Counted from the first letter of the stretch, positions 7,498 to 35,200 are shown. The stretch: DNA of 40,060 nucleotides from a virus (IMGVR_UViG_2563366805_000009); one strand, 5' to 3'. Made by a program: numbers and translations. Notes: a model not told the origin generated them from the sequence alone.

Positions 7498-7589
7498 TCA
7501 CGCGGGTTAACAATTCGTGCTCTTAATAATACCAGGCATATCAGGCTGATGAACGTAAAAAAACGTTTTACATCAGTAAGATTATTATA

Positions 7590-7609
7590 TACTGTAAATA
7601 TAAACAGTG
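7590..7609. promoter_or_regulatory. LexA (SOS) box
   Basis: TACTGTAAATATAAACAGTG fits the consensus TACTG(TA)5CAGTA (CTGT-N8-ACAG). It lies 42 nt upstream of the AGGAGG-ATG at 7641-7651. Confidence 0.6.
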
Positions 7610-7749
7610 GTTATATGTACAGTATTGCGTATGGTGTTATAGGAGGAAAGATGCAGGACTATTTTTTGGAGTCTTTGAAGCTCCAGCGCATTGATTTTTT
7701 TCTTAAGCTTGTAGCGGCTAGTGAGTGTAGTGATGAAGAGAAGGGGCTA

Positions 7750-8902
7750 AATAGCTGCGCGGAATAGTAGATCACTGAAAGGGAACTCAGCCCGGATTGT
7801 GCGATCTGATCAATCGCCAAACCAACCAAAATCACCAACCGGACTGAGCGATGCCGATCATAGTACCAATACCCCGTGGCGAACGACGCCTGATGCAGAA
7901 AGCTATTCATAAAACGCGTGATAAAAATCATGCCCGCAGACTCACGGCCATGCTGATGCTTCATCGGGGTGAACGGGTCAGCGATGTTGCCAGAACTCTC
8001 TGTTGTGCCCGTTCATCCGTTGGTCGCTGGATTAACTGGTTTACGCACTCAGGTATTGAAGGCCTGAAATCCTTACCCGCAGGGCGCTCCCGACGCTGGC
8101 CTTTTGAACATATCTGCACCCTGTTACGTGAGCTGATAAAGCATTCTCCCGGCGATTTTGGTTATCAACGTTCACGCTGGAGCACCGAATTACTGGCAAT
8201 AAAAATCAATGAGATAACCGGTTGCCAGTTACATGCAGGAACCGTTCGCCGCTGGTTGCCATCTGCGGGGCTTGTATGGCGCAGGGCCGCGCCAACTCTG
8301 CGTATCCGTGACCCACATAAAGATGAAAAGATGGCGGTAATCCACAAAGCGCTGGATGAATGCAGCGCAGAGCATCCGGTATTTTATGAAGATGAAGTGG
8401 ATATCCACCTTAATCCTAAAATCGGTGCGGACTGGCAGTTGCGCGGACAGCAGAAACGGGTAGTGACGCCGGGGCAGAACGAAAAATACTATCTGGCCGG
8501 CGCACTGCACAGTGGCACGGGTAAAGTCAGCTACGTGGGCGGCAACAGCAAAAGTTCAGCGCTGTTTATCGCTCTGCTGAAGCACCTGAAAGCCACTTAC
8601 CGGCGGGCGAAAACAATCACGCTGATCGTTGATAACTACATTATCCATAAAAGCCGCGAAACACAGCGCTGGTTGAAAGCAAATCCCAAGTTCAGGGTAA
8701 TTTACCAGCCGGTTTACTCGCCGTGGGTGAATCATGTGGAACGGCTATGGCAGGCACTTCATGACACGATAACCCGTAATCATCAGTGCCGCTCAATGTG
8801 GCAGTTACTGAAAAAGGTCCGCCATTTTATGGAAACCGCCAGCCCATTCCCCGGAGGAAAACATGGTCAGGCAAAAGTGTAGCGGTATTAGGCGCAGCTA
8901 TT
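7750..8902 (+). mobile_element. IS630 (1153 bp, intact)
   Basis: Terminal inverted repeats: AATAGCTGCGCGGAATA at the left end, and the reverse complement AATAGCTGCGCCTAATA at the right end. TA duplication (7748-49 and 8903-04) within a CTAG target. The length equals the 1153 bp I recall for IS630. Confidence 0.9.
7851..8882 (+). CDS. IS630-family (Tc1/mariner-like) DDE transposase, 343 aa
   Basis: Full-length ORF between the IRs. N-terminal HTH regions and a DDE-type C-terminal domain (YEDEVDIHLNP ... LIVDNYIIHKS ... PWVNHVERLW). Confidence 0.95.
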   Translation: MPIIVPIPRGERRLMQKAIHKTRDKNHARRLTAMLMLHRGERVSDVARTLCCARSSVGRWINWFTHSGIEGLKSLPAGRSRRWPFEHICTLLRELIKHSPGDFGYQRSRWSTELLAIKINEITGCQLHAGTVRRWLPSAGLVWRRAAPTLRIRDPHKDEKMAVIHKALDECSAEHPVFYEDEVDIHLNPKIGADWQLRGQQKRVVTPGQNEKYYLAGALHSGTGKVSYVGGNSKSSALFIALLKHLKATYRRAKTITLIVDNYIIHKSRETQRWLKANPKFRVIYQPVYSPWVNHVERLWQALHDTITRNHQCRSMWQLLKKVRHFMETASPFPGGKHGQAKV

Positions 8903-9061: not shown

Positions 9062-9361
9062 TTAGTTGTTCCCCAAAGAGCCGGCCATGGCTGCATATTT
9101 AATTTCTTCGCTGGGTATTTCAGGATGTAGTTGAATTTGCCTGATGATATAGCCAGGAACTTCGTCACTCCACAGTTTCGCCGCGTCCTTACAGACCTTA
9201 TACGCGAAGTCTCTATTCTCAAAGGCATAGGATTTTCCGTATGCATATTGCTGACAGGCATGAACATAAGCTCCGAAGTCGCCGTCTTTATCTGGCAAAG
9301 CACATCCAGCTAAGGCTATGATGATTGCTACTAACGTAAAGGAGAAAGTTATACGTTTCAT
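9062..9361 (-). CDS. Lipoprotein, unknown function (99 aa)
   Basis: Signal peptide with lipobox LAGC (MKRITFSFTLVAIIIALAGC). Confidence 0.7.
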   Translation of the reverse strand: MKRITFSFTLVAIIIALAGCALPDKDGDFGAYVHACQQYAYGKSYAFENRDFAYKVCKDAAKLWSDEVPGYIIRQIQLHPEIPSEEIKYAAMAGSLGNN

Positions 9362-9469
9362 GGTCTCTTTCTAAGCGTTTAGCATTATTTAACTAAGGGG
9401 TATCTGCCGTGATTTGGTAGTCCCTGATATATATTCTCAGGGACTATGCTGAAGTAGCTTTAATTTTGA

Positions 9470-10276
9470 TTATTTAGAAAGGTACTTATCTCTAAGTTGA
9501 TTCAGTCTGTCAGCATCGCGTTCTGAAAACTCGGCGTCACCATAGATCGATTTCCCATCTGCGTCTTCAAGGCCAATGACTGTGACGGTAAATATAGCAT
9601 CAGCCGGAACTTTAAGTTTTCCCCAATCAGAGTATCTATTAGGGGCTAATTTCCAGTTGGCTTTCTCACCTGGTTCCAGACCTCCAGAAATTTTATAGTT
9701 GAAGACGTCAGAGAACCAAGGGACGCTTCTTCCTGGGCTGGCAATAACTCCTTTGAAGAATACTCTGGCAACCGCTTTGTCTGTTCCGTTTTCAACGCTA
9801 ATATCCAGAATTGGCTGATCATTGCCGTAATCCTCTTTCTGGAAATAAAAACGGGAACGTTCGACCTTGAAGGCTTTCATTTTTTCCGCAGCCTGTGTTG
9901 CAGAGGTTTGTTTGGCTTCCAGTTCTTTTATTTCTTGCAGAGCCTGTTCTTTCTCTCTCTTCTCACGCTCAAGGCGAATAGTTTGTGCGTAATTTATAAC
10001 CTCATCACCAGTTTTACCTTCCAACGCTGACTTAATTTTTGTTTCGTAGACGTCCCCAGAAGACGTTCCAGCCTGCATTAGCTCTCTCATGTTGATTTGG
10101 CTAAAGGCAACGACTTTAACTGCATCATCAAACTGAGCTTTTTTATCTGCAGGTAAGGACTCTCTTACTTTTTGAATGGACTCTTTCATCGACTGATCGC
10201 TTGATGCATCGATCTTCGGTTTGTCACAAGCAGTAAGCAGCAGAGCAAAAGCAATTACGCCAGTTAATTTCTTCAT
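9470..10276 (-). CDS. Lipoprotein, unknown function (268 aa)
   Basis: The internal Met at 10276 gives MKKLTGVIAFALLLTAC (lipobox LTAC). Central coiled-coil-like EKREKEQALQEIKELEAK segment. The 24-codon upstream extension in the ORF track lacks support. Confidence 0.75.
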   Translation of the reverse strand: MKKLTGVIAFALLLTACDKPKIDASSDQSMKESIQKVRESLPADKKAQFDDAVKVVAFSQINMRELMQAGTSSGDVYETKIKSALEGKTGDEVINYAQTIRLEREKREKEQALQEIKELEAKQTSATQAAEKMKAFKVERSRFYFQKEDYGNDQPILDISVENGTDKAVARVFFKGVIASPGRSVPWFSDVFNYKISGGLEPGEKANWKLAPNRYSDWGKLKVPADAIFTVTVIGLEDADGKSIYGDAEFSERDADRLNQLRDKYLSK

Positions 10277-10437
10277 ATCCCTATCCCAATCGTAAAAAAA
10301 CAAGGCTAATCCTAACAGGATTAGCGGGCATGACAAACTCATAGCCATATAGGTGTGCTGTATAAATTAGCGGGATGAGAAAGCCTGCACAGACCCTCAT
10401 GTTGAAACTTGATTTTAGCTCAAAAGAGCTGACACTA

Positions 10438-10618
10438 AATAACTGCGCGGAATAATGTTCCACTTTCGGTTAGCCCTTGGCCCTTGGCTCTTGCTGGGTA
10501 AGGCGTGGGGCCGTTTTCTTCGCCTGATCCTGCTGTATCTGGCCTACAGTATGTTGTCCTTACGCGACATGCCACATGTCAGTAAACGGCAGGTGTAGCA
10601 GTATTAGACGCAGCTATT
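10438..10618. mobile_element. IS630-derived MITE (181 bp, non-autonomous)
   Basis: The ends AATAACTGCGCGGAATAAT and GTATTAGACGCAGCTATT each match the IS630 termini at 7750/8902 with one mismatch in the compared stretch. TA duplication in a CTAG target (10435-37 and 10619-21). No ORF inside. Confidence 0.75.
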
Positions 10619-10805
10619 TAGTGTGTATTAAGCTGGCTCATATTTATGACTGGTTTCAAGGTTTGACCGATTTTCATGTCATGCATGTCTATGCTGCATG
10701 AGTTCGCATGATCGTTTGAGGATCGGTTTGGCTAAGACATGCCAGAACTGGCGGGCTTTTGCTCATGTCATGCAGGTGCATGAAAACTACTACATAAAGC
10801 GGGCA

Positions 10806-10824
10806 GGCGTGGCGGGGATACGAG
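10806..10824. other. Probable cos cohesive-end sequence
   Basis: GGCGTGGCGGGGATACGAG shares its first 13 nt with the 19-nt cohesive end I recall for phage 186 (GGCGTGGCGGGGAAAGCAT; P2 is GGCGAGGCGGGGAAAGCAC). It lies in a non-coding stretch between gene A and gene Q, as expected. Confidence 0.6.
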
Positions 10825-10983
10825 CGCGCGCTCGCTTAGTTTTGTAACACTCTGAGTAAGGTCGCTTTTTAGAAGCAAATGGCTTGCAAATTTTTTCAAC
10901 ATTGAGGTAATTTGTTAGGTATCGAAGGATAAATTAAGACAAGAGCAAATTCTTATTGCTTTTTGGATGACTAGGTGCAAGTT

Positions 10984-12090
10984 ATGACAGGTAGTGTCCC
11001 AGTAGTGCTTTCTGAGTCTGAGTTAAAGTCGATCTTGACCTTAACTGAACGTTTCACATGGAACGTTGCAAGGCCAATTATTGCGTCTTTAGGGCTGCCA
11101 ACAGGTAGGGGGCGTGAAGCAACAAACGAAAAAATACTAGAAAGCCTCATTGATCTTAAAAGTAAAGATAGGCAAAAGTTTGATGGCATTATGGCAAACG
11201 TAAATGACCTAATTTTGGGTCAGGTCGTTTATGGTGAAAAAGCAATATTTAGTTTGACTGTAGATAATAGTGTAATTAAAACACTAAATGACAGATTTAG
11301 TTTCCAATGGAATTTGATGAATCAACCATCATTATTGGTTGATTCGATCCTTGATGATGTCCAATTGCAAAATGCTGTAAAAAATCAACCTGAACTTGTT
11401 AATTATTCTATTCAAAACACCCAGTCAATACTTGTTTTTTCATCTGTCAGAGAATTAGTTGTAAGAGAAAAAATTCCCCCGTCAGCACTTGCGCAATACA
11501 AGCAGTTTGATGAAATTATTGCAAAGCGAAAAGAAAAGCGACAATGTTTTGATGTCTGTATATTAGACTCTGTTACTAATAAAATTCATGTTTTGGTAGA
11601 TACTAATGGTAATATTATTGGTGATAATGTTACTTTTGCAAAGAGTAACATTATTCGTGAATTGTATAATCATGTCGGTTATGAATTTAAATCATCGGAA
11701 AAAGATTTTTATCCGTTAATTGAGCCAATTTTCAAACAAAATTCATTGCCTTATTCAAAATTAAGCTATAAAGTCTTTGATTTGTCATTTTTGACGAATG
11801 AGGGGACTACGCATAAAGAAAAGAAAAATGTGGCCACTAAAGACTTACGTGATGATTTGTTTAATAAGGAAGGCATCAAAGCAGTAGGCAGTATTGGTTT
11901 GTATCGTATTGGAATTAGAGTTGATAGAAATAATCCAAAACTGCAATTAGCGGATAACGTAGAGCTTATCATTCCGGGAACACTCCGCAGGCATCTAGGA
12001 GGGAGTAGTTGCTCTCCTGTTAACTATGCTATATTAAGTAAATGTATATCCAAAGATGATTTCGAAACCCTCACAAAGCTGATATTATAA
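10984..12090 (+). CDS. Unknown protein, gene 1 of the three-gene cassette (368 aa)
   Basis: Long AT-rich ORF. ATG 10984 is preceded by TAGGTG; GTG 10975 is an alternative start. No Walker A or other motif I recognise. A possible helix-extended-helix-like N-terminal segment (LGLPTGRGREATNEKILESLIDL). Confidence 0.8.
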   Translation: MTGSVPVVLSESELKSILTLTERFTWNVARPIIASLGLPTGRGREATNEKILESLIDLKSKDRQKFDGIMANVNDLILGQVVYGEKAIFSLTVDNSVIKTLNDRFSFQWNLMNQPSLLVDSILDDVQLQNAVKNQPELVNYSIQNTQSILVFSSVRELVVREKIPPSALAQYKQFDEIIAKRKEKRQCFDVCILDSVTNKIHVLVDTNGNIIGDNVTFAKSNIIRELYNHVGYEFKSSEKDFYPLIEPIFKQNSLPYSKLSYKVFDLSFLTNEGTTHKEKKNVATKDLRDDLFNKEGIKAVGSIGLYRIGIRVDRNNPKLQLADNVELIIPGTLRRHLGGSSCSPVNYAILSKCISKDDFETLTKLIL

Positions 12091-12102
12091 TTGGAGTCAG
12101 CA

Positions 12103-12537
12103 ATGAAGGATGGTGATATGCCCAAGATCATCAAAGAAATGTGTGCAGAACGCCCTGAAATTGGGGCGTTAGCTTGCTATTTGTACGATGAAATCGAGGC
12201 AAGGGCTAAAAAATCATCAAATATAGCTTTAAGTTATAAGGATTTATTTAATATAGCTGGTGGTTATAATAAGGTTTTACAGCCAGAAACGTATGAGCAG
12301 GTTATCTATCCGGCCATACAAATTCTTTGTAGCCCAAAGGTTGATTTTTTAAAACTCAATTATTGGTTCATTGATGATTTTCATGACCCTGTAGAACTTG
12401 AAATAGAGGAAGTTATTGAGGCGGAAATCAGTCAATCTTTAGCAAACCCATTTACAGGGGAGCTTATGTATGACTATAAGTCATTCGTATTTCCTTTTTT
12501 TACATTAGATGAATCTAAATCAAAGGATATTATCTGA
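12103..12537 (+). CDS. Unknown small acidic protein, gene 2 of the cassette (144 aa)
   Basis: GGAG at 12093 with ATG at 12103, 12 nt after the gene-1 stop. Asp/Glu-rich. No recognisable motif. Confidence 0.75.
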   Translation: MKDGDMPKIIKEMCAERPEIGALACYLYDEIEARAKKSSNIALSYKDLFNIAGGYNKVLQPETYEQVIYPAIQILCSPKVDFLKLNYWFIDDFHDPVELEIEEVIEAEISQSLANPFTGELMYDYKSFVFPFFTLDESKSKDII

Positions 12538-13202
12538 TGTTAAAAATGTCTGCAGCAATGAGTTTGGCTGATATTGATAATGATATTTTTCTTCAGCGTA
12601 TTAATGCTTCTATTACTCGTGTTAGATTTGCACTTCAATCGTACGATAATTTCAAACAATTTGTCAGGATTGAACTTGATTCTGCTGTAAAGGAAATAGA
12701 AGAGAATTCAAATAAGTTAAACTTCGATTTAACAGAAGATCAGCTTACTTTAATTTTATTGGCCAATATCAAAAATAAAGATATGGGCATTGAAGCATTT
12801 CATGAAAATAATCAGCGCGGACATTGTGATATTACAATAAAACTAAAGGATTATATTTGGCATGGCGAAGCCAAAAAACATACATCTTCATATAGTTATT
12901 TATTTAAAGGGTATGCTCAACTCACTGAACGATATAGTACAGGGACCGTAGACAGCGCAAGTGGTGGATTGATTATCTATACTCGTAATAGAAAATGTAA
13001 TGAAATGATGAGCAACTGGAAGGCGCATTTAGATAAATTCGCACCAAGAATTCATGCCTGTAAATCTATAACGATTACTCCTTGTCAAAAAAATCCATTG
13101 GTTTTTTATAGCCAGCATGTTCACACAGTTACTCAACTGAATTATGAAGTTATTCATTACCCTGTAAATCTATATCATGAGCCTGTAGATCCGGATCTTT
13201 AA
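12537..13202 (+). CDS. Putative PD-(D/E)xK-fold nuclease, gene 3 of the cassette (221 aa)
   Basis: Its start overlaps the gene-2 stop (TGATG). The sequence GIEAFHE..GHCDITIKLKDYIWHGEAKKH gives an E...D(98)-x12-E(111)-x-K(113) pattern typical of restriction-endonuclease-like folds. Confidence 0.75.
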   Translation: MLKMSAAMSLADIDNDIFLQRINASITRVRFALQSYDNFKQFVRIELDSAVKEIEENSNKLNFDLTEDQLTLILLANIKNKDMGIEAFHENNQRGHCDITIKLKDYIWHGEAKKHTSSYSYLFKGYAQLTERYSTGTVDSASGGLIIYTRNRKCNEMMSNWKAHLDKFAPRIHACKSITITPCQKNPLVFYSQHVHTVTQLNYEVIHYPVNLYHEPVDPDL

Positions 13203-23920: not shown

Positions 23921-24518
23921 TCTGCTGCCACGGGGTTCAACTTCACTGGAGCGCCGACTGGCGCAAACCTGTAGCGGGATTTCTGATCTGCAGGTGCCGC
24001 TGCGTGACTTGTGGAATCCGGCTACCTGTCCGGTCAGCTTCCTGCCTTATCTCGCCTGGGCGTTCTCTGTGGATCGCTGGGACGAGGGCTGGACAGAAAG
24101 CGTCAAACGCCAGGTAGTGAAGGATGCTTTTTATATTCATCAGCATAAAGGAACCACCAGTGCCGTGCGGCGGGTGGTGGAACCGTTCGGATTCCTGATC
24201 CGCATTATTGAGTGGTGGCAAACCGGAGAGGCTCCGGGCACGTTTCGCCTGGATATCGGCGTGCAGGACCAGGGCATCACTGAAGATACCTATCTGGAAC
24301 TTGAGCGACTGATAAGCGATGCCAAACCATGTAGCCGCCACATGATCGGCATGTCCATCAATCTGCAGACCAGCGGCCCGCATTGGGTGGGAGCCGCCAG
24401 CTATCTTGGCGAAGAAATCACGATCTATCCGTATATCAACGAAACAATTATTTCTGGCGGCACCGCGCATGAAGGCGGGGCGGTCCATGTTATTGACACA
24501 ATGAGAGTGAATCCATGA
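23913..24518 (+). CDS. I: Baseplate/tail protein gpI
   Basis: 201 aa. P2 I position and sequence type. Confidence 0.8.
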
Positions 24519-25897
24519 GCACAAAATTTTATACCCTGCTGACGGATATTGGCGCGGCGAAACTTGTCAGCGCCGCCGCGCTCGGTGTGCCGCTAAAAAT
24601 TACCCATATGGCGGTGGGCGATGGTGGCGGAACATTGCCGACGCCGGACGCAAAGCAGAGTGCACTGGTAAATGAGAAACGTCGGGCTGCGCTGAATATG
24701 CTCTATATCGACCCACAGAACAGCAGCCAGATTATTGCTGAACAGGTGATCCCTGAAAACGAGGGCGGTTGGTGGATACGTGAAGTGGGCCTGTTTGATG
24801 AGTCAGGGGCATTGATTGCCGTGGGCAACTGCCCGGAAAGCTATAAGCCGCAACTGGCTGAAGGCAGCGGGCGTACCCAGACCGTGCGCATGGTGCTGAT
24901 TACCAGCAGCACGGACAATATCACCCTGAAAATCGACCCTGCTGTAGTGCTGGCAACCCGCAAGTATGTGGATGACAAGGCACTGGAGCTGAAGGTGTAC
25001 GCGGATGATCAGATGGCAAAACATCTTGCCGCACCGGACCCGCATTCACAGTATGCAGCCAAAGAAAGTCCTACGTTTACCGGGACACCCAAAGCGCCAA
25101 CGCCAGCGACGGGGAATAACACCACGCAGGTTGCGACCACCGCATTTGTTCAGGCGGCACTGACGGCTCTTATTAATGATGCGCCAGCCACGCTGGACAC
25201 GCTGAAAGAAATAGCCGTAGCCATTAACAATGATCCGAAATTCAGTACCACCATTAACAATGCGCTGGCACTGAAAGCGCCGCTGTCGAGTCCGGCACTC
25301 ACCGGAACGCCAACCGCACCGACTGCGGCACAGTCGGTCAACAATACACAGATTGCCACCACGGCATTTGTGAAATCGGCGATTGCGGCAATGGTGGGTT
25401 CTGCACCTGCGGCACTGGATACACTGAACGAACTGGCGGCGGCGCTGGGGAATGACCCGAACTTTGCCACGACAATGCTTAATGCACTGGCAGGTAAACA
25501 ACCGCTGGACAATACGCTGACTCATTTGAGTGGAAAGGATGTTGCTAGTCTTCTCGCATACCTTGGTTTGGGAGAAGCGGCAAAACGGAATGTGGGAACA
25601 GGGGAAAATCAGATACCTGATATGTCATCATATGCATCAGGTTCAGGCTGGCGAAAAATGCCAGATGGTTCAATTGAACAGTGGGGACGAATTAGTTTTC
25701 CTGGTGAACACGGGCCTGTATCCGCCAATGTTTCATTCCCGATTCCATTTACACAGACACCTGGCATTGTAATTGTGTGCGATGGTGGTTTCGGGGGCGG
25801 GAATATGTGGGGGGCGACCAACTGGAGCACTACCGGCTTCATAGCTCACTGCAATTATGGTCTTGAAGGTGGTGCGTTTTTCGCTAAGGGCTGGTAA
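24515..25897 (+). CDS. H: Tail fibre protein gpH (constant part fused to variable cassette Sv1)
   Basis: 460 aa with tail-fibre repeats (TTAFV..AP..LDTL.E.A.A..NDP.F.TT..NAL..K.PL, twice). Crossover site ix1 lies in-frame at 25551-25576. The C-terminal 110 aa (25565..25897) form the invertible cassette. Confidence 0.9.
25551..25576. other. Invertase crossover site ix1 (Hc half / Sv1 half)
   Basis: TTCTCGCATACC-TT-GGTTTGGGAGAA is a 26-bp imperfect palindrome resembling hix/gix/pix sites (compare hixL, TTCTTGAAAACC-AA-GGTTTTTGATAA). Confidence 0.75.
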
Positions 25898-26340
25898 TGA
25901 TGAAATATCTGTACGTAAACAACCTGGCATATCCTTACGAACTTCAGTCTCTTTATGTTGAAAAAGGTGAATGGCCTGAAGAAAAAGGTGTTGATATAGA
26001 CGAAGTAATTTTCAGGGAATATTTCTATGACACACCACCAGAAGGAAAATACAGATGTGTTGGAGAAGATGGACTGCCTGCATGGGCAGATATTCCTCCA
26101 CCAACACGTGAAGAACAAATTGCATCAGCCGAAACTAAAAAGCAGCAATTGATTAATCAGGCCAACGATTATATGAACAGTAGACAATGGGTTGGTAAAG
26201 CGGCTATTGGTCGTCTGAAAGGTGAGGAACTGGCGCAATATAATTTGTGGCTGGATTATCTGGACGCACTGGAGCTGGTCGATACTTCCGGTGCACCAGA
26301 TATTGAATGGCCTACGCCTCCGGCAGTTCAGGCCAGATGA
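25897..26340 (+). CDS. Tail fibre assembly chaperone Tfa1 (partner of Sv1, gpG/Mu U-like)
   Basis: 147 aa. ATGA coupling to the H stop. The C-terminal tail-fibre-assembly motif region overlaps the convergent Tfa2 gene. Confidence 0.85.
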   Translation: MMKYLYVNNLAYPYELQSLYVEKGEWPEEKGVDIDEVIFREYFYDTPPEGKYRCVGEDGLPAWADIPPPTREEQIASAETKKQQLINQANDYMNSRQWVGKAAIGRLKGEELAQYNLWLDYLDALELVDTSGAPDIEWPTPPAVQAR

Positions 26341-26914
26341 CATCCGGCGCGGTGCTGGTATCTGTTGCCGTCACCGCGTCAATGTAATCCAGCACGGCGT
26401 TAAGGCGGGTTGTTTCTGCCTGCGTCAGCTTCCGTCCGGCCTGTAATTTCAGTTGAATCAGACTGATGGAGGCCATTGCAGTATCAATCAGCGACTGGCG
26501 CTGTGCTTCTGCTGCATCTACTGCTGCGCCGTGCTGTGCCTCAGTATCGGTCACCCATTTCTCACCATCCCATTTATCGTATGGCGTTAACGGGGCGATA
26601 GTGGTTGTATTTTCAGGGTAATCACCCGGAGTTGTGATTTCTTTGGCTTCTCCCGTTTCGGTGTTATAGACGATTTCACCGCGATGGTCTGGCACATATT
26701 CCCATGAGTTAAAATCTGCAGAACGGCAGATAGCATAACCAGCCTTATATGTGCCTGGTGAATCTAAACAGGAATATGCCGGGATACCAACACCAACGGC
26801 AAGATATTCATTTGAAGTGGAAATATATTCCCGTATTTCACCATCATAGTTATAGACGGTAATATTCCCTGCCTTCGTGGCAATAATCTCGCTATTTAAT
26901 ACAGCGTTATCCAT
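26312..26914 (-). CDS. Tail fibre assembly chaperone Tfa2 (partner of Sv2), copy 1
   Basis: 200 aa. Convergent with Tfa1, as for Mu U/U'. Confidence 0.8.
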   Translation of the reverse strand: MDNAVLNSEIIATKAGNITVYNYDGEIREYISTSNEYLAVGVGIPAYSCLDSPGTYKAGYAICRSADFNSWEYVPDHRGEIVYNTETGEAKEITTPGDYPENTTTIAPLTPYDKWDGEKWVTDTEAQHGAAVDAAEAQRQSLIDTAMASISLIQLKLQAGRKLTQAETTRLNAVLDYIDAVTATDTSTAPDVIWPELPEA

Positions 26915-27393
26915 TATGCAGCCCTCACAATATAATTAAAGGCAATGTTACGTGGGCGGTTCTCATTTGCGGTTGGGACAACGGCTGAAGCATTAAAATT
27001 CGCATACAGGGAGCGTTGATACCCGGATGCTGATGCACCACTTAATGCGGGAGCTTTTGACTCCGAAGCCGAAAAGGCCCCTGACACGTATCCTAATAAC
27101 CCTTGTGAATCGCCAATTGAACTGTAGCCAACCACCCCGGTAATGTTTCGGATAGCATCTCCTTGTGCTGAAAGCAGAGTTCGCCCACTATCCACTCCCT
27201 TTCCACCATCCCAGCCACGAATAAACTCACCGCGTAAATCAGGCAATTTTAACGTCGGGTAAGCCTTTGCCAGATTAGGGTAATCTTCAGCAGAAAAAGC
27301 CGCACCGTTGCATTTCAGCCAGCCTGTTGGCGGTGTGGCTGAAGGCCATGGAACAGGCACACCAACAGGCAGCGCAGAGCCTTCCCCTAAACC
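26914..27393 (-). CDS. Silent alternative tail-fibre C-terminal cassette Sv2, copy 1 (no start of its own)
   Basis: The frame is continuous from crossover site ix2. GLGEGSALPVGVPVPWPSATPPTGWLKCNGAAFSAEDYP is a Mu S / tail-collar-type receptor-binding C-terminus. Confidence 0.75.
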   Translation of the reverse strand, partial: GLGEGSALPVGVPVPWPSATPPTGWLKCNGAAFSAEDYPNLAKAYPTLKLPDLRGEFIRGWDGGKGVDSGRTLLSAQGDAIRNITGVVGYSSIGDSQGLLGYVSGAFSASESKAPALSGASASGYQRSLYANFNASAVVPTANENRPRNIAFNYIVRAA

Positions 27394-27407
27394 AACGTTT
27401 AAGAAAA
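27382..27407. other. Crossover site ix2 (Sv2 half / invertase-side half)
   Basis: TTCCCCTAAACC-AA-CGTTTAAGAAAA. Confidence 0.7.
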
Positions 27408-27437
27408 TGCAGAGGTGTGGAAAGGATGTTGCTAGTC

Positions 27438-27463
27438 TTCTCGCATACCTTGGTTTAGGGGAA
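27438..27463. other. Crossover site ix3 (duplicated Hc half / Sv2 half)
   Basis: TTCTCGCATACC-TT-GGTTTAGGGGAA, preceded by a 21-bp copy of the H constant region (27417..27437 is identical to 25530..25550). Confidence 0.7.
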
Positions 27464-27931
27464 GGCTCTGCGCTGCCTGTTGGTGTGCCTGTTCCATGGC
27501 CTTCAGCCACACCGCCAACAGGCTGGCTGAAATGCAACGGTGCGGCTTTTTCTGCTGAAGATTACCCTAATCTGGCAAAGGCTTACCCGACGTTAAAATT
27601 GCCTGATTTACGCGGTGAGTTTATTCGTGGCTGGGATGGTGGAAAGGGAGTGGATAGTGGGCGAACTCTGCTTTCAGCACAAGGAGATGCTATCCGAAAC
27701 ATTACCGGGGTGGTTGGCTACAGTTCAATTGGCGATTCACAAGGGTTATTAGGATACGTGTCAGGGGCCTTTTCGGCTTCGGAGTCAAAAGCTCCCGCAT
27801 TAAGTGGTGCATCAGCATCCGGGTATCAACGCTCCCTGTATGCGAATTTTAATGCTTCAGCCGTTGTCCCAACCGCAAATGAGAACCGCCCACGTAACAT
27901 TGCCTTTAATTATATTGTGAGGGCTGCATAA
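27452..27931 (+). CDS. Sv2 cassette, copy 2 (not joined to full-length H)
   Basis: Mirror image of 26914..27393. Confidence 0.7.
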   Translation, partial: GLGEGSALPVGVPVPWPSATPPTGWLKCNGAAFSAEDYPNLAKAYPTLKLPDLRGEFIRGWDGGKGVDSGRTLLSAQGDAIRNITGVVGYSSIGDSQGLLGYVSGAFSASESKAPALSGASASGYQRSLYANFNASAVVPTANENRPRNIAFNYIVRAA

Positions 27932-28533
27932 TGGATAACGCTGTATTAAATAGCGAGATTATTGCCACGAAGGCAGGGAATATTACCGTCTATAACTATG
28001 ATGGTGAAATACGGGAATATATTTCCACTTCAAATGAATATCTTGCCGTTGGTGTTGGTATCCCGGCATATTCCTGTTTAGATTCACCAGGCACATATAA
28101 GGCTGGTTATGCTATCTGCCGTTCTGCAGATTTTAACTCATGGGAATATGTGCCAGACCATCGCGGTGAAATCGTCTATAACACCGAAACGGGAGAAGCC
28201 AAAGAAATCACAACTCCGGGTGATTACCCTGAAAATACAACCACTATCGCCCCGTTAACGCCATACGATAAATGGGATGGTGAGAAATGGGTGACCGATA
28301 CTGAGGCACAGCACGGCGCAGCAGTAGATGCAGCAGAAGCACAGCGCCAGTCGCTGATTGATACTGCAATGGCCTCCATCAGTCTGATTCAACTGAAATT
28401 ACAGGCCGGACGGAAGCTGACGCAGGCAGAAACAACCCGCCTTAACGCCGTGCTGGATTACATTGACGCGGTGACGGCAACAGATACCAGCACCGCGCCG
28501 GATGTCATCTGGCCTGAACTGCCGGAGGCGTAG
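27931..28533 (+). CDS. Tfa2, copy 2
   Basis: Translation identical to 26312..26914. Confidence 0.75.
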   Translation: MDNAVLNSEIIATKAGNITVYNYDGEIREYISTSNEYLAVGVGIPAYSCLDSPGTYKAGYAICRSADFNSWEYVPDHRGEIVYNTETGEAKEITTPGDYPENTTTIAPLTPYDKWDGEKWVTDTEAQHGAAVDAAEAQRQSLIDTAMASISLIQLKLQAGRKLTQAETTRLNAVLDYIDAVTATDTSTAPDVIWPELPEA

Positions 28534-28948
28534 GCCATTCAATATCTGGTGCACCGGAAGTATCGACCAGCTCCAGTGCGTCCAGATAATCCAGCCACAA
28601 ATTATATTGCGCCAGTTCCTCACCTTTCAGACGACCAATAGCCGCTTTACCAACCCATTGTCTACTGTTCATATAATCGTTGGCCTGATTAATCAATTGC
28701 TGCTTTTTAGTTTCGGCTGATGCAATTTGTTCTTCACGTGTTGGTGGAGGAATATCTGCCCATGCAGGCAGTCCATCTTCTCCAACACATCTGTATTTTC
28801 CTTCTGGTGGTGTGTCATAGAAATATTCCCTGAAAATTACTTCGTCTATATCAACACCTTTTTCTTCAGGCCATTCACCTTTTTCAACATAAAGAGACTG
28901 AAGTTCGTAAGGATATGCCAGGTTGTTTACGTACAGATATTTCATCAT
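28505..28948 (-). CDS. Tfa1, copy 2
   Basis: Translation identical to 25897..26340. Confidence 0.75.
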   Translation of the reverse strand: MMKYLYVNNLAYPYELQSLYVEKGEWPEEKGVDIDEVIFREYFYDTPPEGKYRCVGEDGLPAWADIPPPTREEQIASAETKKQQLINQANDYMNSRQWVGKAAIGRLKGEELAQYNLWLDYLDALELVDTSGAPDIEWPTPPAVQAR

Positions 28949-29280
28949 TACCAGCCCTTAGCGAAAAACGCACCACCTTCAAGACCATAATTGCAGTGAG
29001 CTATGAAGCCGGTAGTGCTCCAGTTGGTCGCCCCCCACATATTCCCGCCCCCGAAACCACCATCGCACACAATTACAATGCCAGGTGTCTGTGTAAATGG
29101 AATCGGGAATGAAACATTGGCGGATACAGGCCCGTGTTCACCAGGAAAACTAATTCGTCCCCACTGTTCAATTGAACCATCTGGCATTTTTCGCCAGCCT
29201 GAACCTGATGCATATGATGACATATCAGGTATCTGATTTTCCCCTGTTCCCACATTCCGTTTTGCCGCTTCTCCCAAACC
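28948..29280 (-). CDS. Sv1 cassette, copy 2 (silent)
   Basis: Mirror image of 25565..25897 ([23 protein letters not shown]...). Confidence 0.7.
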
Positions 29281-29294
29281 AACGTTTAAGAAAA
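29269..29294. other. Crossover site ix4 (Sv1 half / invertase-side half)
   Basis: TTCTCCCAAACC-AA-CGTTTAAGAAAA. Confidence 0.7.
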
Positions 29295-29349
29295 TGCAGA
29301 GGTAACAGCTAACTGGCATCATCTCCGGTTTTTATTCAGGGGGATGATC

Positions 29350-29916
29350 ATGCTTATTGGCTATGTACGCGTGTCAACAAATGACCAGAACACCGATTTG
29401 CAACGTAATGCACTGAACTGCGCGGGATGTGAGCGGATTTTTGAGGACAAAATCAGTGGCACTAAGTCCGACAGACCGGGGCTGAAAAAACTACTCAGGA
29501 CACTATCGGCAGGAGACACGCTGGTTGTCTGGAAGCTGGACAGGTTGGGGCGCAGTATGCGGCATCTTGTTACGCTGATAGAAGAGTTGCGCCAGCGTGG
29601 TGTGAATTTCAGAAGCCTGACTGACAGTATTGATACCAGTACCCCAATGGGCCGTTTCTTTTTTCATGTCATGGGTGCCCTGGCTGAAATGGAACGCGAA
29701 CTGATAGTTGAACGTACCAGGGCAGGGCTGGCTGCAGCTCGTGCCAAAGGCAGAGTAGGTGGACGCCGTCCTAAGTTGACCACCGAACAGTGGGCACAGA
29801 TTGGGCGTTTACTCGAGGCCGGAGAATCAAGACAGCGTATTGCACTGATTTTTGATGTAGGCGTTTCTACCATTTATAGAAAATTTCCGGCAAATAAGAT
29901 CAATGAATCCCCCTGA
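29350..29916 (+). CDS. Serine DNA invertase (Hin/Gin/Cin/Pin family)
   Basis: MLIGYVRVSTNDQNTDLQRNAL..DTLVVWKLDRLGRSMRHL..MGRFFFHVMGALAEMERELI is near-identical in pattern to e14 Pin / Mu Gin. It has a C-terminal HTH. Confidence 0.95.
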   Translation: MLIGYVRVSTNDQNTDLQRNALNCAGCERIFEDKISGTKSDRPGLKKLLRTLSAGDTLVVWKLDRLGRSMRHLVTLIEELRQRGVNFRSLTDSIDTSTPMGRFFFHVMGALAEMERELIVERTRAGLAAARAKGRVGGRRPKLTTEQWAQIGRLLEAGESRQRIALIFDVGVSTIYRKFPANKINESP

Positions 29917-29964
29917 ATCAGCATTATGTTGATTATCCCTGCAAGCAGACAAATACCGTTATTT

Positions 29965-29982
29965 TGTGTGAATAACGACACA
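29965..29982. promoter_or_regulatory. Ogr-type late-promoter dyad (PF)
   Basis: TGTGTGAATAACGACACA (TGT-N12-ACA), located between the invertase gene and FI. Confidence 0.6.
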
Positions 29983-30058
29983 ACTGCGTTTAGCTGTTTG
30001 TCAGGCACAATCACTTCAACATAGGGCGAAGCCTAATCCAATCAGGAGGTTCGCCACT

Positions 30059-31231
30059 ATGGCTCAGGATTACCACCACGGGGTGCGCGTTGTTGAAGTC
30101 AACGAAGGCACCCGATCTATTACCACGGTGAGCACCGCCATCGTGGGTATGGTCTGCACGGGCGATGATGCCGATGCAAAAATGTTTCCTCTTAATAAAC
30201 CCGTGCTGATCACTGATGTGCTGACTGCCAGCGGTAAAGCGGGTGAGTCCGGTACTCTGGCCCGTTCGCTGGATGCCATCGCTGACCAGGCAAAACCCGT
30301 GACCATTGTTGTGCGTGTGCCGCAGGGTGAAACGGAAGACGAAACCACGACCAATATCATCGGCGCAGTGACTGCTGAAGGTAAAAAAACAGGTATGAAA
30401 GCCCTGTTATCTGCCCAGTCACAGCTCGGCGTTAAACCGCGCATTCTCGGCGTGCCAGGCCACGACACCAAGGCGGTGGCTACTGAGTTGCTGAGCGTGG
30501 CGCAAAGCCTGCGTGGATTTGCTTACCTGTCAGCGTATGGCTGCAAGACAGTGCAGGAGGCGATCACTTACCGCGAAAACTTCAGCCAGCGCGAAGGGAT
30601 GCTGATCTGGCCTGACTTTACTGGCTGGGACACGGTGCTGAATGCCGAAGCAACGGCATATGCCACCGCTCGTGCGCTTGGTCTGCGCGCCAAAATTGAC
30701 GAGCAGACCGGATGGCACAAAAGCCTGTCCAACGTGGGCGTGAACGGTGTCACCGGAATTTCTGCAGATGTGTTCTGGGATCTGCAGGACCCGGCAACCG
30801 ATGCAGGTCTGCTGAACCAGAAAGACGTCACCACGCTTGTGCGTAAAGACGGTTTCCGCTTCTGGGGTTCCCGCTGCCTGAGTGATGACCCGCTCTTTGC
30901 CTTCGAAAACTACACCCGCACGGCGCAGGTGCTGATGGACACGATGGCAGAAGCACACATGTGGGCGGTGGATAAACCGCTTAACCCGTCGCTGGCCCGC
31001 GACATTATCGAAGGTATCCGCGCCAAAATGCGCAGCCTGGTCAGTCAGGGCTATCTCATTGGTGGTGATTGCTGGCTGGATGAGTCGGTGAACGACAAAG
31101 ACACGCTGAAAGCCGGAAAACTCACCATCGACTACGACTACACGCCAGTGCCGCCACTTGAAAACCTGATGCTGCGTCAGCGCATCACCGATCAGTACCT
31201 GGTGAATTTCGCCAGCCAGGTCAGCGCGTAA
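30059..31231 (+). CDS. FI: Contractile tail sheath protein FI
   Basis: 390 aa. [13 protein letters not shown]... is a typical P2 FI start. Confidence 0.9.
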
Positions 31232-31240
31232 GGGGACAAC

Positions 31241-31756
31241 ATGGCTTTACCACGCAAATTAAAACACCTGAACCTGTTTAACGACGGGAACAACTGGCAG
31301 GGGATCGTTGAGTCGCTGACGCTGCCGAAATTTACCCGCAAATATGAGAAGTATCGCGGCGGCGGAATGCCGGGTGCGGTGGATGTGGATCTGGGGCTTG
31401 ATGACAGTGCGCTGGACACAGAATTTTCCATTGGTGGTACTGAATTGCTGCTGTTTAAACAGATGGGTAAAGCCACGGTGGATGGCATCCAGCTGCGCTT
31501 TACCGGCTCTATTCAGCGTGACGATACCGGGGAAGTGCAGGCCGTGGAGCTTGTCGTGCGTGGACGTCACAAAGAAGTGGATTCCGGCGAGTGGAAGACG
31601 GGCGAAAGCAACACCACCAAAGTGACCAGTACCAACAGCTACGCGAAGCTGACCATCAATGGTGAGGTGCTCTATGAAGTGGACCTTATCAACATGGTGG
31701 AAATTGTGGACGGTGTGGACCTGATGGAAGCGCACCGCAACGCCCTCGGCCTCTGA
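31241..31756 (+). CDS. FII: Tail tube protein FII
   Basis: 171 aa. MALPRKLKHLNLFNDG... is P2 FII-like. Confidence 0.9.
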   Translation: MALPRKLKHLNLFNDGNNWQGIVESLTLPKFTRKYEKYRGGGMPGAVDVDLGLDDSALDTEFSIGGTELLLFKQMGKATVDGIQLRFTGSIQRDDTGEVQAVELVVRGRHKEVDSGEWKTGESNTTKVTSTNSYAKLTINGEVLYEVDLINMVEIVDGVDLMEAHRNALGL

Positions 31757-31810
31757 TATATCTGAACGGCGCGGGATACCGCGCCAGAACCCAATTGACA
31801 GGACAGCAAA

Positions 31811-32113
31811 ATGAGCGATAAGCAGACTGAAAAGACCATTCAACTGGATACCCCCATCAAGCGCGGTAAAACAGAAATCACCGAAATTGTGCTGCGTAAA
31901 CCGCAGTCCGGTGCGCTGCGCGGTACACGCCTGCAGGCCATTATGGATATGGATGTAAACGCGATGATGACCGTGATCCCCCGCATCTCCAGTCCGGCAC
32001 TGACTGCACAGGAAATTGCAGAGATGGACCCGGCAGATCTCACTGCCATGTCGGTTGAGGTTGTCACTTTTTTGTTGAAGAAGTCGGTGCTTGCCGGTTT
32101 ACCGACAGCCTGA
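31811..32113 (+). CDS. E: Tail assembly chaperone gpE
   Basis: 100 aa, upstream of the tape measure gene. Confidence 0.85.
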   Translation: MSDKQTEKTIQLDTPIKRGKTEITEIVLRKPQSGALRGTRLQAIMDMDVNAMMTVIPRISSPALTAQEIAEMDPADLTAMSVEVVTFLLKKSVLAGLPTA

Positions 32114-32247
32114 CGGTTGACGATCTGGTGGCAGATATCGCCACCATTTTTCACTGGCCGCCATCCGTTACTGACGTTATGCCGCTGACCGAAGTGCTGG
32201 AATGGCGGTATAAAGCGATTCAGAGAAGCGGGGCCAACGATGAGTGA
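31811..32247 (+). CDS. E+E': gpE+E' produced by a programmed -1 frameshift at T_TTT_TTG (32068..32074)
   Basis: Hand translation of the -1 frame from 32068 gives FFVEEVGACRFTDSLTVDDLVADIATIFHWPPSVTDVMPLTEVLEWRYKAIQRSGANDE, with a stop at 32245-47 overlapping the T start. The slippery heptamer is the same as in P2. Confidence 0.8.
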
Positions 32248-35200
32248 TAACAACCTGCGTCTGCAGGTCATTCTTAATGCGGTTGACAAGCTTACCCGCC
32301 CATTTCGATCTGCGCAGGCCAGTTCAAGAGAACTGGCTGCTGCTGTCAAAAAATCCCGCGATGCAATAAAGCAGCTTGATCAGGCCGGGAGCAGTCTGGA
32401 CAGCTTCCGAAAGCTGCAGGCAGAAAATCAGAAATTAGGCGACAGGCTGAACTATGCCCGCCAGCGTGCAAATTTGCTCAGTCAGGAACTGGGAGCGATG
32501 GGGCCGCCTTCGCAACGTCAGGTTGTTGCTCTGGGCCGTCAACGGCTGGCTGTTCAGCGCCTGGAAGAACGCCAGAAAAAGCTGCAGCAGCAGACGGCGC
32601 TTGTGCGTGCTGAACTGTACCGGGCGGGAATTTCTGCGAAAGACGATGCGGGAGCAACTGCCCGTTTAGCCCGTGAAACATCACGTTATAACCAGGAACT
32701 TTCGAAACAGGAGGCGCGGCTGAAGCGACTGGGGGAAGCTCAGCGCAGGATGAATGCAGCGCGTGCCAGTTATGCCCGTTCGCTGGAGGTGCGTGATCGT
32801 ATTGCAGGTGCCGGAGCCACCACCACGGCTGCAGGGCTGGCAATGGGCGCACCAGTGATGGCGGCAGTAAAAAGCTATACCAGCATGGAAGATGCCATGA
32901 AAGGTGTGGCAAAGCAGGTCAATGGTCTGCGTGACGATAATGGCAACCGCACTGCACGTTTTTATGAAATGCAGGATGCCATCAAGGCTGCCAGCGAACA
33001 GTTGCCGATGGAAAACGGTGCGGTGGATTTCGCTGCACTGGTTGAAGGTGGTGCGCGCATGAACGTCGCAAACCCTGACGACAGTTGGGAAGATCAGAAA
33101 CGTGACCTGCTGGCCTTCGCCAGTACGGCAGCAAAGGCGGCAACAGCCTTTGAGCTGCCAGCGGATGAACTGTCAGAAAGTCTGGGGAAAATCGCCCAGC
33201 TCTACAAAATCCCCACCCGCAATATTGAACAGCTCGGCGATGCGCTGAACTATCTGGATGATAACGCCATGTCGAAAGGGGCAGACATCATTGATGTGAT
33301 GCAACGTCTGGGCGGTGTGGCTGACCGTCTGGATTATCGTAAAGCGGCGGCGCTGGGTTCCACCTTCCTGACACTGGGCGCTGCGCCAGAGGTTGCAGCC
33401 AGTGCAGCAAACGCGATGGTGCGTGAATTGTCCATTGCCACCATGCAAAGCAAGAGTTTCTTTGAAGGGATGAATCTGCTGAAACTCAATCCTGAAGTGA
33501 TTGAAAAGCAGATGACGAAGGATGCGATGGGAACCATCCAGCGCGTGCTGGAGAAGGTAAACGCGCTGCCGCAGGACAAGCGCCTGTCTGCCATGACTAT
33601 GTTGTTTGGTAAAGAGTTTGGCGATGACGCGGCGAAACTGGCAAACAACCTGCCGGAACTGCAGCGTCAGTTAAAACTGACAGCGGGCAATGATGCGCTC
33701 GGCTCCATGCAGAAAGAATCCGACATTAACAAGGATTCACTTTCTGCGCAGTGGTTGCAGGTCAAAACCGGAGCGCAGAACACCTTCAGCAGTCTGGGCG
33801 AAACGCTGCGCCAGCCGCTGATGGATATTCTGTACACGGTGAAAAGCGTCACGGGGGCGTTGCGTCGCTGGGTGGAAGCTAACCCGGAACTGACAGGCAC
33901 ACTGATGAAAGCATCGGCTGTTGTGGCTGCGGTTACCGTCGGCCTAGGCACCTTAGCGGTGGCGATGGCTGCAGTGCTGGGGCCGCTGGCAGTGATCCGT
34001 CTGGGATTCTCTGTGCTGGGTATCAAAACGTTACCTTCCGTTACGGCAGCAGTAACTCGAACCAGCAACGCGTTGTCCTGGTTGGCTGGCGCTCCACTGG
34101 CACTGCTGCGACGCGGGCTTGCTTCATCGGGCAACGCCGCAGGTTTACTTACTGCGCCGTTGTCGTCTTTGCGCCGCACGGCATCACTGACGGGAAATGT
34201 CCTGAAAACTGTAGCAGGTGCGCCAGTTGCACTTTTGCGGTCTGGATTATCCGGTTTACGTGCTGTTGCTGTGATGTTTATGAATCCTCTGGCGGTACTG
34301 CGCGGTGGACTGGCCGCCGCAGGCACGGTGCTGCGAGTACTGGCATCTGGTCCACTGGCGATGCTGCGCGTTGCCCTGTATGCCATATCTGGTCTGTTAG
34401 GTGCTCTGCTCAGTCCGATAGGTCTTGTGGTTACTGCACTGGCGGGCGTGGCGCTGGTTGTCTGGAAATACTGGCAACCCATCACCGCATTTCTCGGTGG
34501 CGTGGTGGAAGGATTCAAAGCGGCGGCAGGTCCCATCAGTGCAGCGTTCGAACCGCTTAAGCCCGTGTTCCAGTGGATTGGCGACAAAGTGCAGGCGCTG
34601 TGGGGCTGGTTTACTGATCTGCTGACGCCCGTTAAGTCGACCTCTGCCGAACTGCAGAGCGCAGCGGCAATGGGGCGGCGATTCGGGGAGGCACTGGCGG
34701 AAGGGCTGAATATGGTCATGCATCCGCTGGACTCCCTGAAATCCGGCGTTTCCTGGTTGCTGGAGAAGCTCGGCATTGTCAGTAAAGAGGCCGCAAAGGC
34801 AAAACTGCCGGAAAGCGTGACGCGTCAGCAACCTGCGACGGTGAATGCAGACGGTAAAGTGATGATGCCATCGGGTGGTTTTCCATCATGGGGATATGGC
34901 TTTGCGGGGATGTATGACAGCGGCGGGTATATCCCGCGCAGGCAGTTTGGCATCGTCGGTGAAAACGGACCGGAAATTGTTAACGGCCCGGCAAATGTGA
35001 CCAGCCGGAGAAATACAGCTGCACTGGCTGCCGTTGTTGCCGGAATGATGGGCGTTGCTGCCGCGCCAGCAGAGCTTCCACCGTTGCACCCCTTGGCACT
35101 TCCCGCGAAAGGTGGAGAAGCAATTGTGAGTCGCGCAGCCACTGTGCCGCTCGTTCAACGGATTGAGGCACCGACGCAGATCATCATTCAGACGCAGCCA

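Follow-up and report, generated by a model that had tools for sequence, protein, structure and literature searches.

Two oppositely flipped copies of a Gin-type tail-fiber cassette in a P2-like prophage of Escherichia coli KTE100: tandem duplication or assembly artifact?

How does a phage host-range switch come to be present twice, in opposite orientations, beside one invertase gene? The question is raised by IMGVR_UViG_2563366805_000009, a viral sequence of 40,060 nucleotides (nt), the whole of which we analyzed and refer to as the window. The window is a P2-like prophage found with 100% identity on the 5.18-Mb scaffold KE137155.1 of Escherichia coli KTE100 (GCA_000408565.1). Its tail-fiber gene, H, has a constant region (Hc) followed by one of two alternative C-terminal segments, Sv1 or Sv2, and the invertible cassette that carries these segments occurs twice upstream of a serine DNA invertase gene. 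We favor, as a probable but by no means secure reading, a real and recent tandem duplication that arose by non-homologous joining and was locked by inversion of one copy. The alternatives, above all an error of assembly, are weighed below.

The two copies form adjoining units of 1887 bp on the plus strand, unit 1 at 25530–27416 and unit 2 at 27417–29303. Unit 1 comprises 21 bp of the H constant region, the crossover site ix1, the invertible segment in its (+) state, the crossover site ix2 and a 9-bp right flank; unit 2 has the same layout, with ix3 and ix4 as its sites and the segment in the (−) state. A repeat search pairs 25530–25577 with 27417–27464, and 27381–27416 with 29268–29303, as direct repeats at a spacing of exactly 1887 bp. 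Compared base by base, the inverted arms 25551–27407 and 27438–29294 (1857 nt each, 30 nt apart) differ at 10 positions, every one of which lies in an outer half-site, within the last 12 bp of an arm. The interior 25563–27395 is the perfect reverse complement of 27450–29282, and the structure as a whole is a 2 × 1.83-kb perfect inverted repeat around a non-palindromic center of 54 bp (27396–27449). Once 27450–29282 has been inverted in silico, from one core to the other, unit 2 matches unit 1 at 1887 of 1887 positions, and no difference remains beyond the flip.

All four crossover sites are 26 bp long and have a 12+2+12 layout, in which two imperfect inverted halves surround a 2-bp core. Site ix1 (25551–25576, plus strand; TTCTCGCATACC TT GGTTTGGGAGAA) unites an Hc half with an Sv1 half, and ix2 (27382–27407, plus strand; TTCCCCTAAACC AA CGTTTAAGAAAA), which is inverted relative to ix1, unites an Sv2 half with a flank half. 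Site ix3 (27438–27463, plus strand; TTCTCGCATACC TT GGTTTAGGGGAA) is direct relative to ix1 and combines the Hc half with the Sv2 half, and ix4 (29269–29294, plus strand; TTCTCCCAAACC AA CGTTTAAGAAAA) combines the Sv1 half with the flank half. Along the plus strand the sites therefore read direct, inverted, direct, inverted, with cores TT, AA, TT and AA. The half-sites are swapped exactly at the core dinucleotide, as expected for site-specific inversion, and, judged by their sequence, ix1–ix4 are ordinary sites of the Din family of invertases.

Between the arms lies the joint that makes two units out of one (27408–27437, plus strand), in which 9 bp of right flank (27408–27416, TGCAGAGGT) are set against 21 bp of the H constant region (27417–27437). 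The 9 bp equal 29295–29303 and the 21 bp equal 25530–25550; an exact composite spacer of 30 bp adjoining 1.86-kb arms cannot have arisen by chance. At the breakpoint, 27416|27417, the parental sequences TTTGA|GTGGA and GAGGT|AACAG share no bases, giving 0 bp of microhomology. A first-pass annotation of this DNA had proposed the two 1887-bp units, the second a flipped copy of the first, together with the half-site composition of the four sites, the two-part make-up of the 54-bp spacer and the lack of microhomology at its junction. Its coordinates and identities proved correct to the base, the half-sites are exactly as it described them, and the remaining proposals were borne out by the comparisons above.

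The joint also creates a chimeric open reading frame (ORF) of 174 aa (27407–27931, plus strand), in which an ATG in the right flank is in frame with seven Hc codons and Sv2. It is annotated as WP_024191338.1. The sole Shine-Dalgarno-like motif of this ORF, AAGAAA, directly abuts the ATG, so its translation is probably weak.

A relative with one unit shows what has been added. The closest complete genome, that of E. coli MS 115-1, carries a prophage at the same chromosomal site that is 99.97% identical over ∼37 kb and has one unit, in the Hc-Sv2 state; positions 27417–33516 of the window are 100% identical to it. Deletion between ix1 and ix3 in silico, whose product the first-pass annotation had proposed looking for, yields a sequence identical to MS 115-1 over the 2317 bp compared. 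KTE100 thus differs from its single-unit relative by exactly one extra unit of 1887 bp. The Hc-Sv2 state is seen in MS 115-1, ECONIH4 and others, and the Hc-Sv1 state in unit 1 of KTE100 and in a metagenome contig (L006); since both orientations of the cassette occur in nature, switching is active.

The chief alternative to a real duplication starts from this same activity, and we regard it as a serious possibility, if short of probable. It holds that KTE100 has a single unit, that the sequenced culture contained both orientations, and that an assembler, scaffolder or gap-closer set the two alleles in series, a "heterotype" false duplication. A considerable body of observation weighs against a real duplication. 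There is one copy per flip state, and the copies enclose the heterogeneous region so tightly that only 21 bp and 9 bp lie outside it, as would be expected of a false duplication that places two alleles side by side. The units are otherwise 100% identical and, being without any difference, give no sign of age. We know of no mechanism that would set the breakpoints of an illegitimate join at 21 bp and 9 bp from the crossover sites. Physical support for 27416|27417 consists of one draft scaffold, to which the joint is unique. We take the KTE genomes to have been assembled at the Broad Institute with ALLPATHS-LG from Illumina fragment and jumping libraries.

Searches for the joint elsewhere point in the same direction. 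A 200-bp query centered on 27416|27417 was contiguous in none of 5426 complete E. coli genomes and in none of 50,697 phage records; it matched 553 of these genomes, through related cassettes, and 31 of the phage records, always as two separate halves. The 24-mer spanning the joint was absent from the collections of species-representative genomes, viral sequences and metagenome contigs. WP_024191338.1 occurs on 1 contig only among ∼15 billion proteins, and none of 10 hypothetical ORFs with the same joint, built on other cassette variants, was present in that collection. Of 26 contigs examined, all of which contain an identical Sv2 chaperone gene, the KTE100 scaffold alone holds it twice in tandem. 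The duplicated structure is a singleton. One apparent second junction type, the 189-aa cluster member P0005, was rejected, because it represents an H gene that has undergone a frameshift within the degraded remnant of a prophage.

Precedent exists for the disturbance that such an error would require. The E. coli EC958 prophages Phi1, Phi2 and Phi4, known from long-read assemblies, have the same kind of locus, and both orientations in one culture disturb their assembly (PMC4134206). Mixed-orientation tail-fiber segments yield alternative contigs in E. coli assemblies, and artefactual duplication is a recognized hazard (PMC4134206). In EC958, however, the alternative orientation formed separate contigs, of which the authors kept one copy, whereas KTE100 joins both orientations through a novel 30-bp joint.

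Several features of this joint speak against an error of assembly. The sequence TGCAGAGGT|GTGGAAAGG is present in neither allele, and the graph of a (+)/(−) mixture accordingly has no edge from flank to Hc; a graph-based assembler cannot make the joint without reads that contain it. The left and right stretches shared by the two units measure 40 bp and 28 bp and fit no single overlap of k−1, and we rejected a De Bruijn unitig-overlap origin of the joint on this ground, because 40 bp implies k = 41 but 28 bp implies k = 29. False duplications usually leave gaps or overlap-derived joints, whereas the KTE100 joint is a clean blunt fusion of sequences that lie 1.9 kb apart in a single-unit genome, with no N gap and no trace of overlap; Ns are absent in and near the duplicated region of KE137155.1. 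A deterministic pipeline error might also have repeated the joint when other related prophages were assembled, and it is absent from them, although this is a weak test.

A genuine (+/−) duplication, by comparison, would be assembled trivially from short reads as flank-S-joint-S′-flank. Under either account, the perfect match between the inverted arms means that the orientation of the central 27396–27449 is beyond reads that do not span an arm and takes mate pairs or long reads to fix. The deposited orientation of this center, which is what makes the reading a tandem one, depends on mate pairs or on an arbitrary choice by the assembler.

If the duplication is real, an ancestor with one unit, as in MS 115-1, would have undergone one illegitimate head-to-tail join, fusing the base 9 bp beyond the right crossover site with the one 21 bp ahead of the left site. 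The opposite flip states could reflect either a later inversion of one copy by the invertase or a join of two sister chromosomes whose segments already had different orientations. One illegitimate join of such sisters gives the identical product, so that of the proposed sequence "duplication, then inversion" the head-to-tail duplication with one flipped copy stands, and the order of events does not follow from the structure. The breakpoints are not at the cores, which means that the invertase did not cut there. Our best guess for their closeness to the sites is survivorship, in that a duplication including more flanking sequence would retain long direct repeats and soon be lost; more speculatively, DNA held in a synapsed invertasome might have been joined illegitimately.

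Two other routes to these breakpoints were considered and rejected. Unequal sister exchange by the invertase at quasi-crossover sites would call for resemblance to half-sites, and there is none around 25529|25530 or 29303|29304. A GT core shared by the breakpoints would leave one GT, and GTGT is seen. The 9-mer GTGGAAAGG has further copies in Sv2, at 27639 and, reverse-complemented, at 27198 (families D2, I5 and I9), whose positions are at odds with microhomology as the origin of the joint.

Bacterial tandem duplications with 0–1 bp of junction homology have been documented (bioRxiv 10.64898/2026.05.22.727201). The KTE100 structure resembles such short-junction, RecA-independent duplications in being head to tail, with no flanking repeat at its boundaries and 0 bp of junction homology. 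It differs from them in its small unit (1.9 kb), which nearly coincides with a site-specific recombination module, and in having one copy inverted, so that the direct homology to which duplications normally owe their instability is gone.

This last difference bears on how the duplication could persist. Tandem duplications are usually lost through homologous recombination. At present the in-register direct identity between the units amounts to only 40 bp plus 28 bp, and it becomes 1887 bp once either unit flips. While the copies are mutually inverted, RecA would have only the 40-bp and 28-bp direct repeats to act on, and the duplication may in this sense be "inversion-locked"; a flip that puts both copies in one orientation would restore 1887 bp of direct homology and make collapse possible. 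The first-pass annotation had suggested that the reluctance of Hin-family enzymes to delete between direct sites could let the duplication persist. The point is sound, since the recombinase is of the Gin type and in wild-type invertases of this family a Fis-bound enhancer complex aligns the sites for inversion (PMC3798978), but it is incomplete as an explanation, homologous recombination mattering at least as much. Enhancer-independent mutants lose this selectivity, and inversion and deletion become equally efficient (PMC4817059). Since an enhancer-dependent invertase normally does not delete between direct sites, it would not be expected to resolve the duplication through either direct pair, ix1/ix3 or ix2/ix4. 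Interrupted palindromes with 20–24-bp centers are cleaved by SbcCD, yet they are tolerated by recombination-proficient E. coli (PMC4245961), which suggests that a 2 × 1.83-kb inverted repeat is viable, probably at some cost.

In its fullest form, the proposal would be that the duplication is real, that inversion-locking gives the copies time to diverge and explains the tight breakpoints, and that the arrangement is a plausible first step toward multi-site shuffling like that of the Min region of p15B. Taken as a whole, we consider this chain rather unlikely.

Still less probable, in our view, is that the arrangement has already been selected as a functional multi-site inversion system, whether as an incipient Min/p15B-like switch that widens host range or as a means of expressing the 174-aa fiber-tip fragment. 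Four apparently intact sites do lie in cis to one invertase, and the joint keeps the ATG in frame with Sv2, with a chaperone gene next. However, when the isomers reachable by ix1 × ix2, ix3 × ix4, ix1 × ix4 and ix2 × ix3 inversions were computed (n = 5), each encoded only Hc-Sv1 (460 aa) or Hc-Sv2 (509 aa). As every isomer makes one of the same two H proteins, the second unit adds no new tail-fiber specificity or coding capacity. The units are identical and undiverged, and the arrangement is conserved in no other genome searched. Retention of the frame has a chance of 1 in 3, and the fragment has its AAGAAA directly against the ATG. Sites ix2 and ix3, moreover, being 30 bp apart, are probably too close for synapsis and are unlikely to pair with each other.

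We find barely credible an origin by snap-back or template switching at quasi-palindromic sites (tandem inversion duplication, TID, or palindrome formation) without the invertase, for which the overall 1.86-kb inverted repeat with its short center and the imperfect inverted repeats within the ix sites might speak, because a TID consists of three copies, of which the central one is inverted, and its junctions lie at quasi-palindromes whose flanks are inverted, whereas KTE100 has two copies and direct flanks of 21 bp and 9 bp, and the arm ends carry the half-site combinations of core exchange, with all 10 mismatches in the outer halves.

Set beside known systems, this is in itself an ordinary Din-family switch in its recombinase, its site architecture and its natural switching. 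With Gin and the G segment of Mu, Cin and the C segment of P1, Pin and the P segment of e14, and Hin, it shares a serine invertase and 26-bp inverted sites with AA/TT cores. As in these systems, a constant 5′ part of the fiber gene is followed by two alternative 3′ ends arranged as mirror images, each with a Caudo_TAP chaperone, and the invertase gene lies just outside one site. Systems of this family also have a Fis-bound recombinational enhancer in cis, as a rule within the 5′ portion of the invertase gene. The sites of EC958 Phi2 (..ACCTT GGTTTAGGAGAA and ..AAACGTT GGTTTGGGGGAA) closely resemble ix1–ix4, which also resemble the tabulated Din-family consensus (PMC4134206). KTE100 departs from the Din-family systems in that its phage is P2-like (portal, terminase, gpV/W/J/I, sheath, tube, gpD and Ogr) and in that the cassette is present twice, with four sites instead of two.

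A closer parallel in the number of sites is the Min multiple-inversion region of p15B, studied by Sandmeier, Iida and Arber, which reportedly has six crossover sites. Both loci combine more than two crossover sites, one Din-family invertase and a tail-fiber gene cluster, and Min is among the members of the site consensus in PMC4134206. In contrast, Min has distinct cassettes and many fiber variants, whereas KTE100 has identical cassettes and two variants and is a case of one genome. The four-site arrangement therefore resembles Min only superficially, as its cassettes are not distinct and it is not conserved in independent genomes.

What the locus would mean depends on which account is correct. 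If the duplication is real, an inversion module would have been caught in the course of being duplicated and then shielded from collapse by its own inversion; this would suggest a simple way in which the complex multi-site switches that govern host range in some phages and plasmids could arise, and the E. coli chromosome would contain a natural 3.7-kb near-palindrome. If it is an artifact, it would illustrate cleanly how draft genomes acquire false gene duplications from phase-variable segments, and WP_024191338.1 would be a spurious RefSeq protein. Either way, knowledge of Gin-type switches is unchanged, and no tail-fiber specificity is added.

In its present form, gene H (24515–25897, plus strand) encodes an Hc-Sv1 protein of 460 aa, constant to 25562 and continuing with the Sv1 C terminus. 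The protein has an N-terminal Phage_tail_fib domain (E = 8.5e-64) and a Gp53-like_C domain (Pfam), and is identical to EOW09399.1/WP_016243526.1 of KTE100. It is followed in unit 1 by the Sv1 tail-fiber assembly chaperone gene (25897–26340, plus strand; 147 aa; Caudo_TAP, E = 1.5e-32). On the minus strand, in silent orientation, unit 1 also holds the Sv2 chaperone gene (26312–26914; 200 aa; Caudo_TAP, E = 1.4e-32) and the silent Sv2 C-terminal coding segment (26914–27381), where a Collar domain is matched on the ORF 26914–27537 (E = 2e-15).

In unit 2 the second copy of the Sv2 chaperone gene (27931–28533; 200 aa) is on the plus strand, and that of the Sv1 chaperone gene (28505–28948; 147 aa) is silent on the minus strand. 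Next to it, a silent Sv1 C-terminal fragment ORF of 124 aa (28948–29322, minus strand) has a Gp53-like_C domain (Pfam); the same fragment gene is annotated in MS 115-1. In ECONIH4 the silent Sv1 fragment (7585–7770 of locus L001) differs by a 1-bp indel from those of KTE100 and MS 115-1, and its annotated ORF is shorter. This indel is an example of decay in the unexpressed orientation. A scan of 24400–30100 for promoters and terminators gave counts not above those in shuffled sequence.

Downstream of both units lies the gene for the serine DNA invertase (29350–29916, plus strand), a protein of 188 aa and of the Gin/Pin/Cin/Hin type. It has a Resolvase domain (PF00239, E = 2.3e-53) and a C-terminal HTH_7 domain (PF02796, E = 1.5e-15), and its residues 1–184 match the crystal structures of Mu Gin, 3UJ3 and 4M6F, at E = 1e-92. 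The identical invertase is very common (9140 blocks in the index), and it adjoins a single invertible segment in all 10 of the other loci among those listed. As predicted from its genes and sites, the locus is a classical host-range switch of the Gin/Cin/Pin type.

The cassette extends to phages of another kind. Two Mu-like prophages with Mu Gp45–48 baseplate genes, at 1496341–1505943 and 2815892–2825494 of CP056865.1 (loci L025 and L026), have the identical 200-aa Sv2 chaperone and its 147-aa partner, and their cassettes adjoin invertases of 182–184 aa. The presence of this cassette in Mu-like prophages indicates an invertible cassette common to P2-like and Mu-like phages.

Degraded remnants of the KTE100 prophage occur at the ybjL site in metagenome and draft contigs (L007, L019, L021 and L027), where the terminase gene abuts a truncated gene I. 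H is sometimes frameshifted in these remnants, which gives the 189-aa fragment P0005. As the invertase and most of the tail genes are deleted, the fiber is frozen there in the Hc-Sv2 state.

In KTE100 the prophage lies between the rcdA/ybjJ side and ybjL/grxA, and within the window it is followed by the host genes ybjL, ybjM and grxA. It has genes for an integrase, a repressor, replication protein A, portal, terminase, capsid and lysis; its tail genes encode baseplate proteins V/W/J/I, tail fiber H, sheath, tube, tape measure, gpU and gpD, and Ogr is also present. The site between the replication genes and the portal gene is typical for variable accessory or defense cargo in P2-like prophages. 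Here this cargo region (9062–13202) holds a DUF6694 lipoprotein gene (9470–10348, minus strand), an ORF of 99 aa and three co-oriented ORFs of 371, 148 and 221 aa; none of these three had a significant match in Pfam or any in PADLOC.

An insertion of ISEc33, an IS630-family element of 1153 bp (7750–8902), follows closely on replication gene A and is missing from the otherwise 99.97% identical MS 115-1 prophage. Its ORF (7851–8882) encodes 343 aa with DDE_3 and HTH domains, and its ends are the terminal inverted repeats AATAGCTGCGC/GCGCAGCTATT, with TA at either side.

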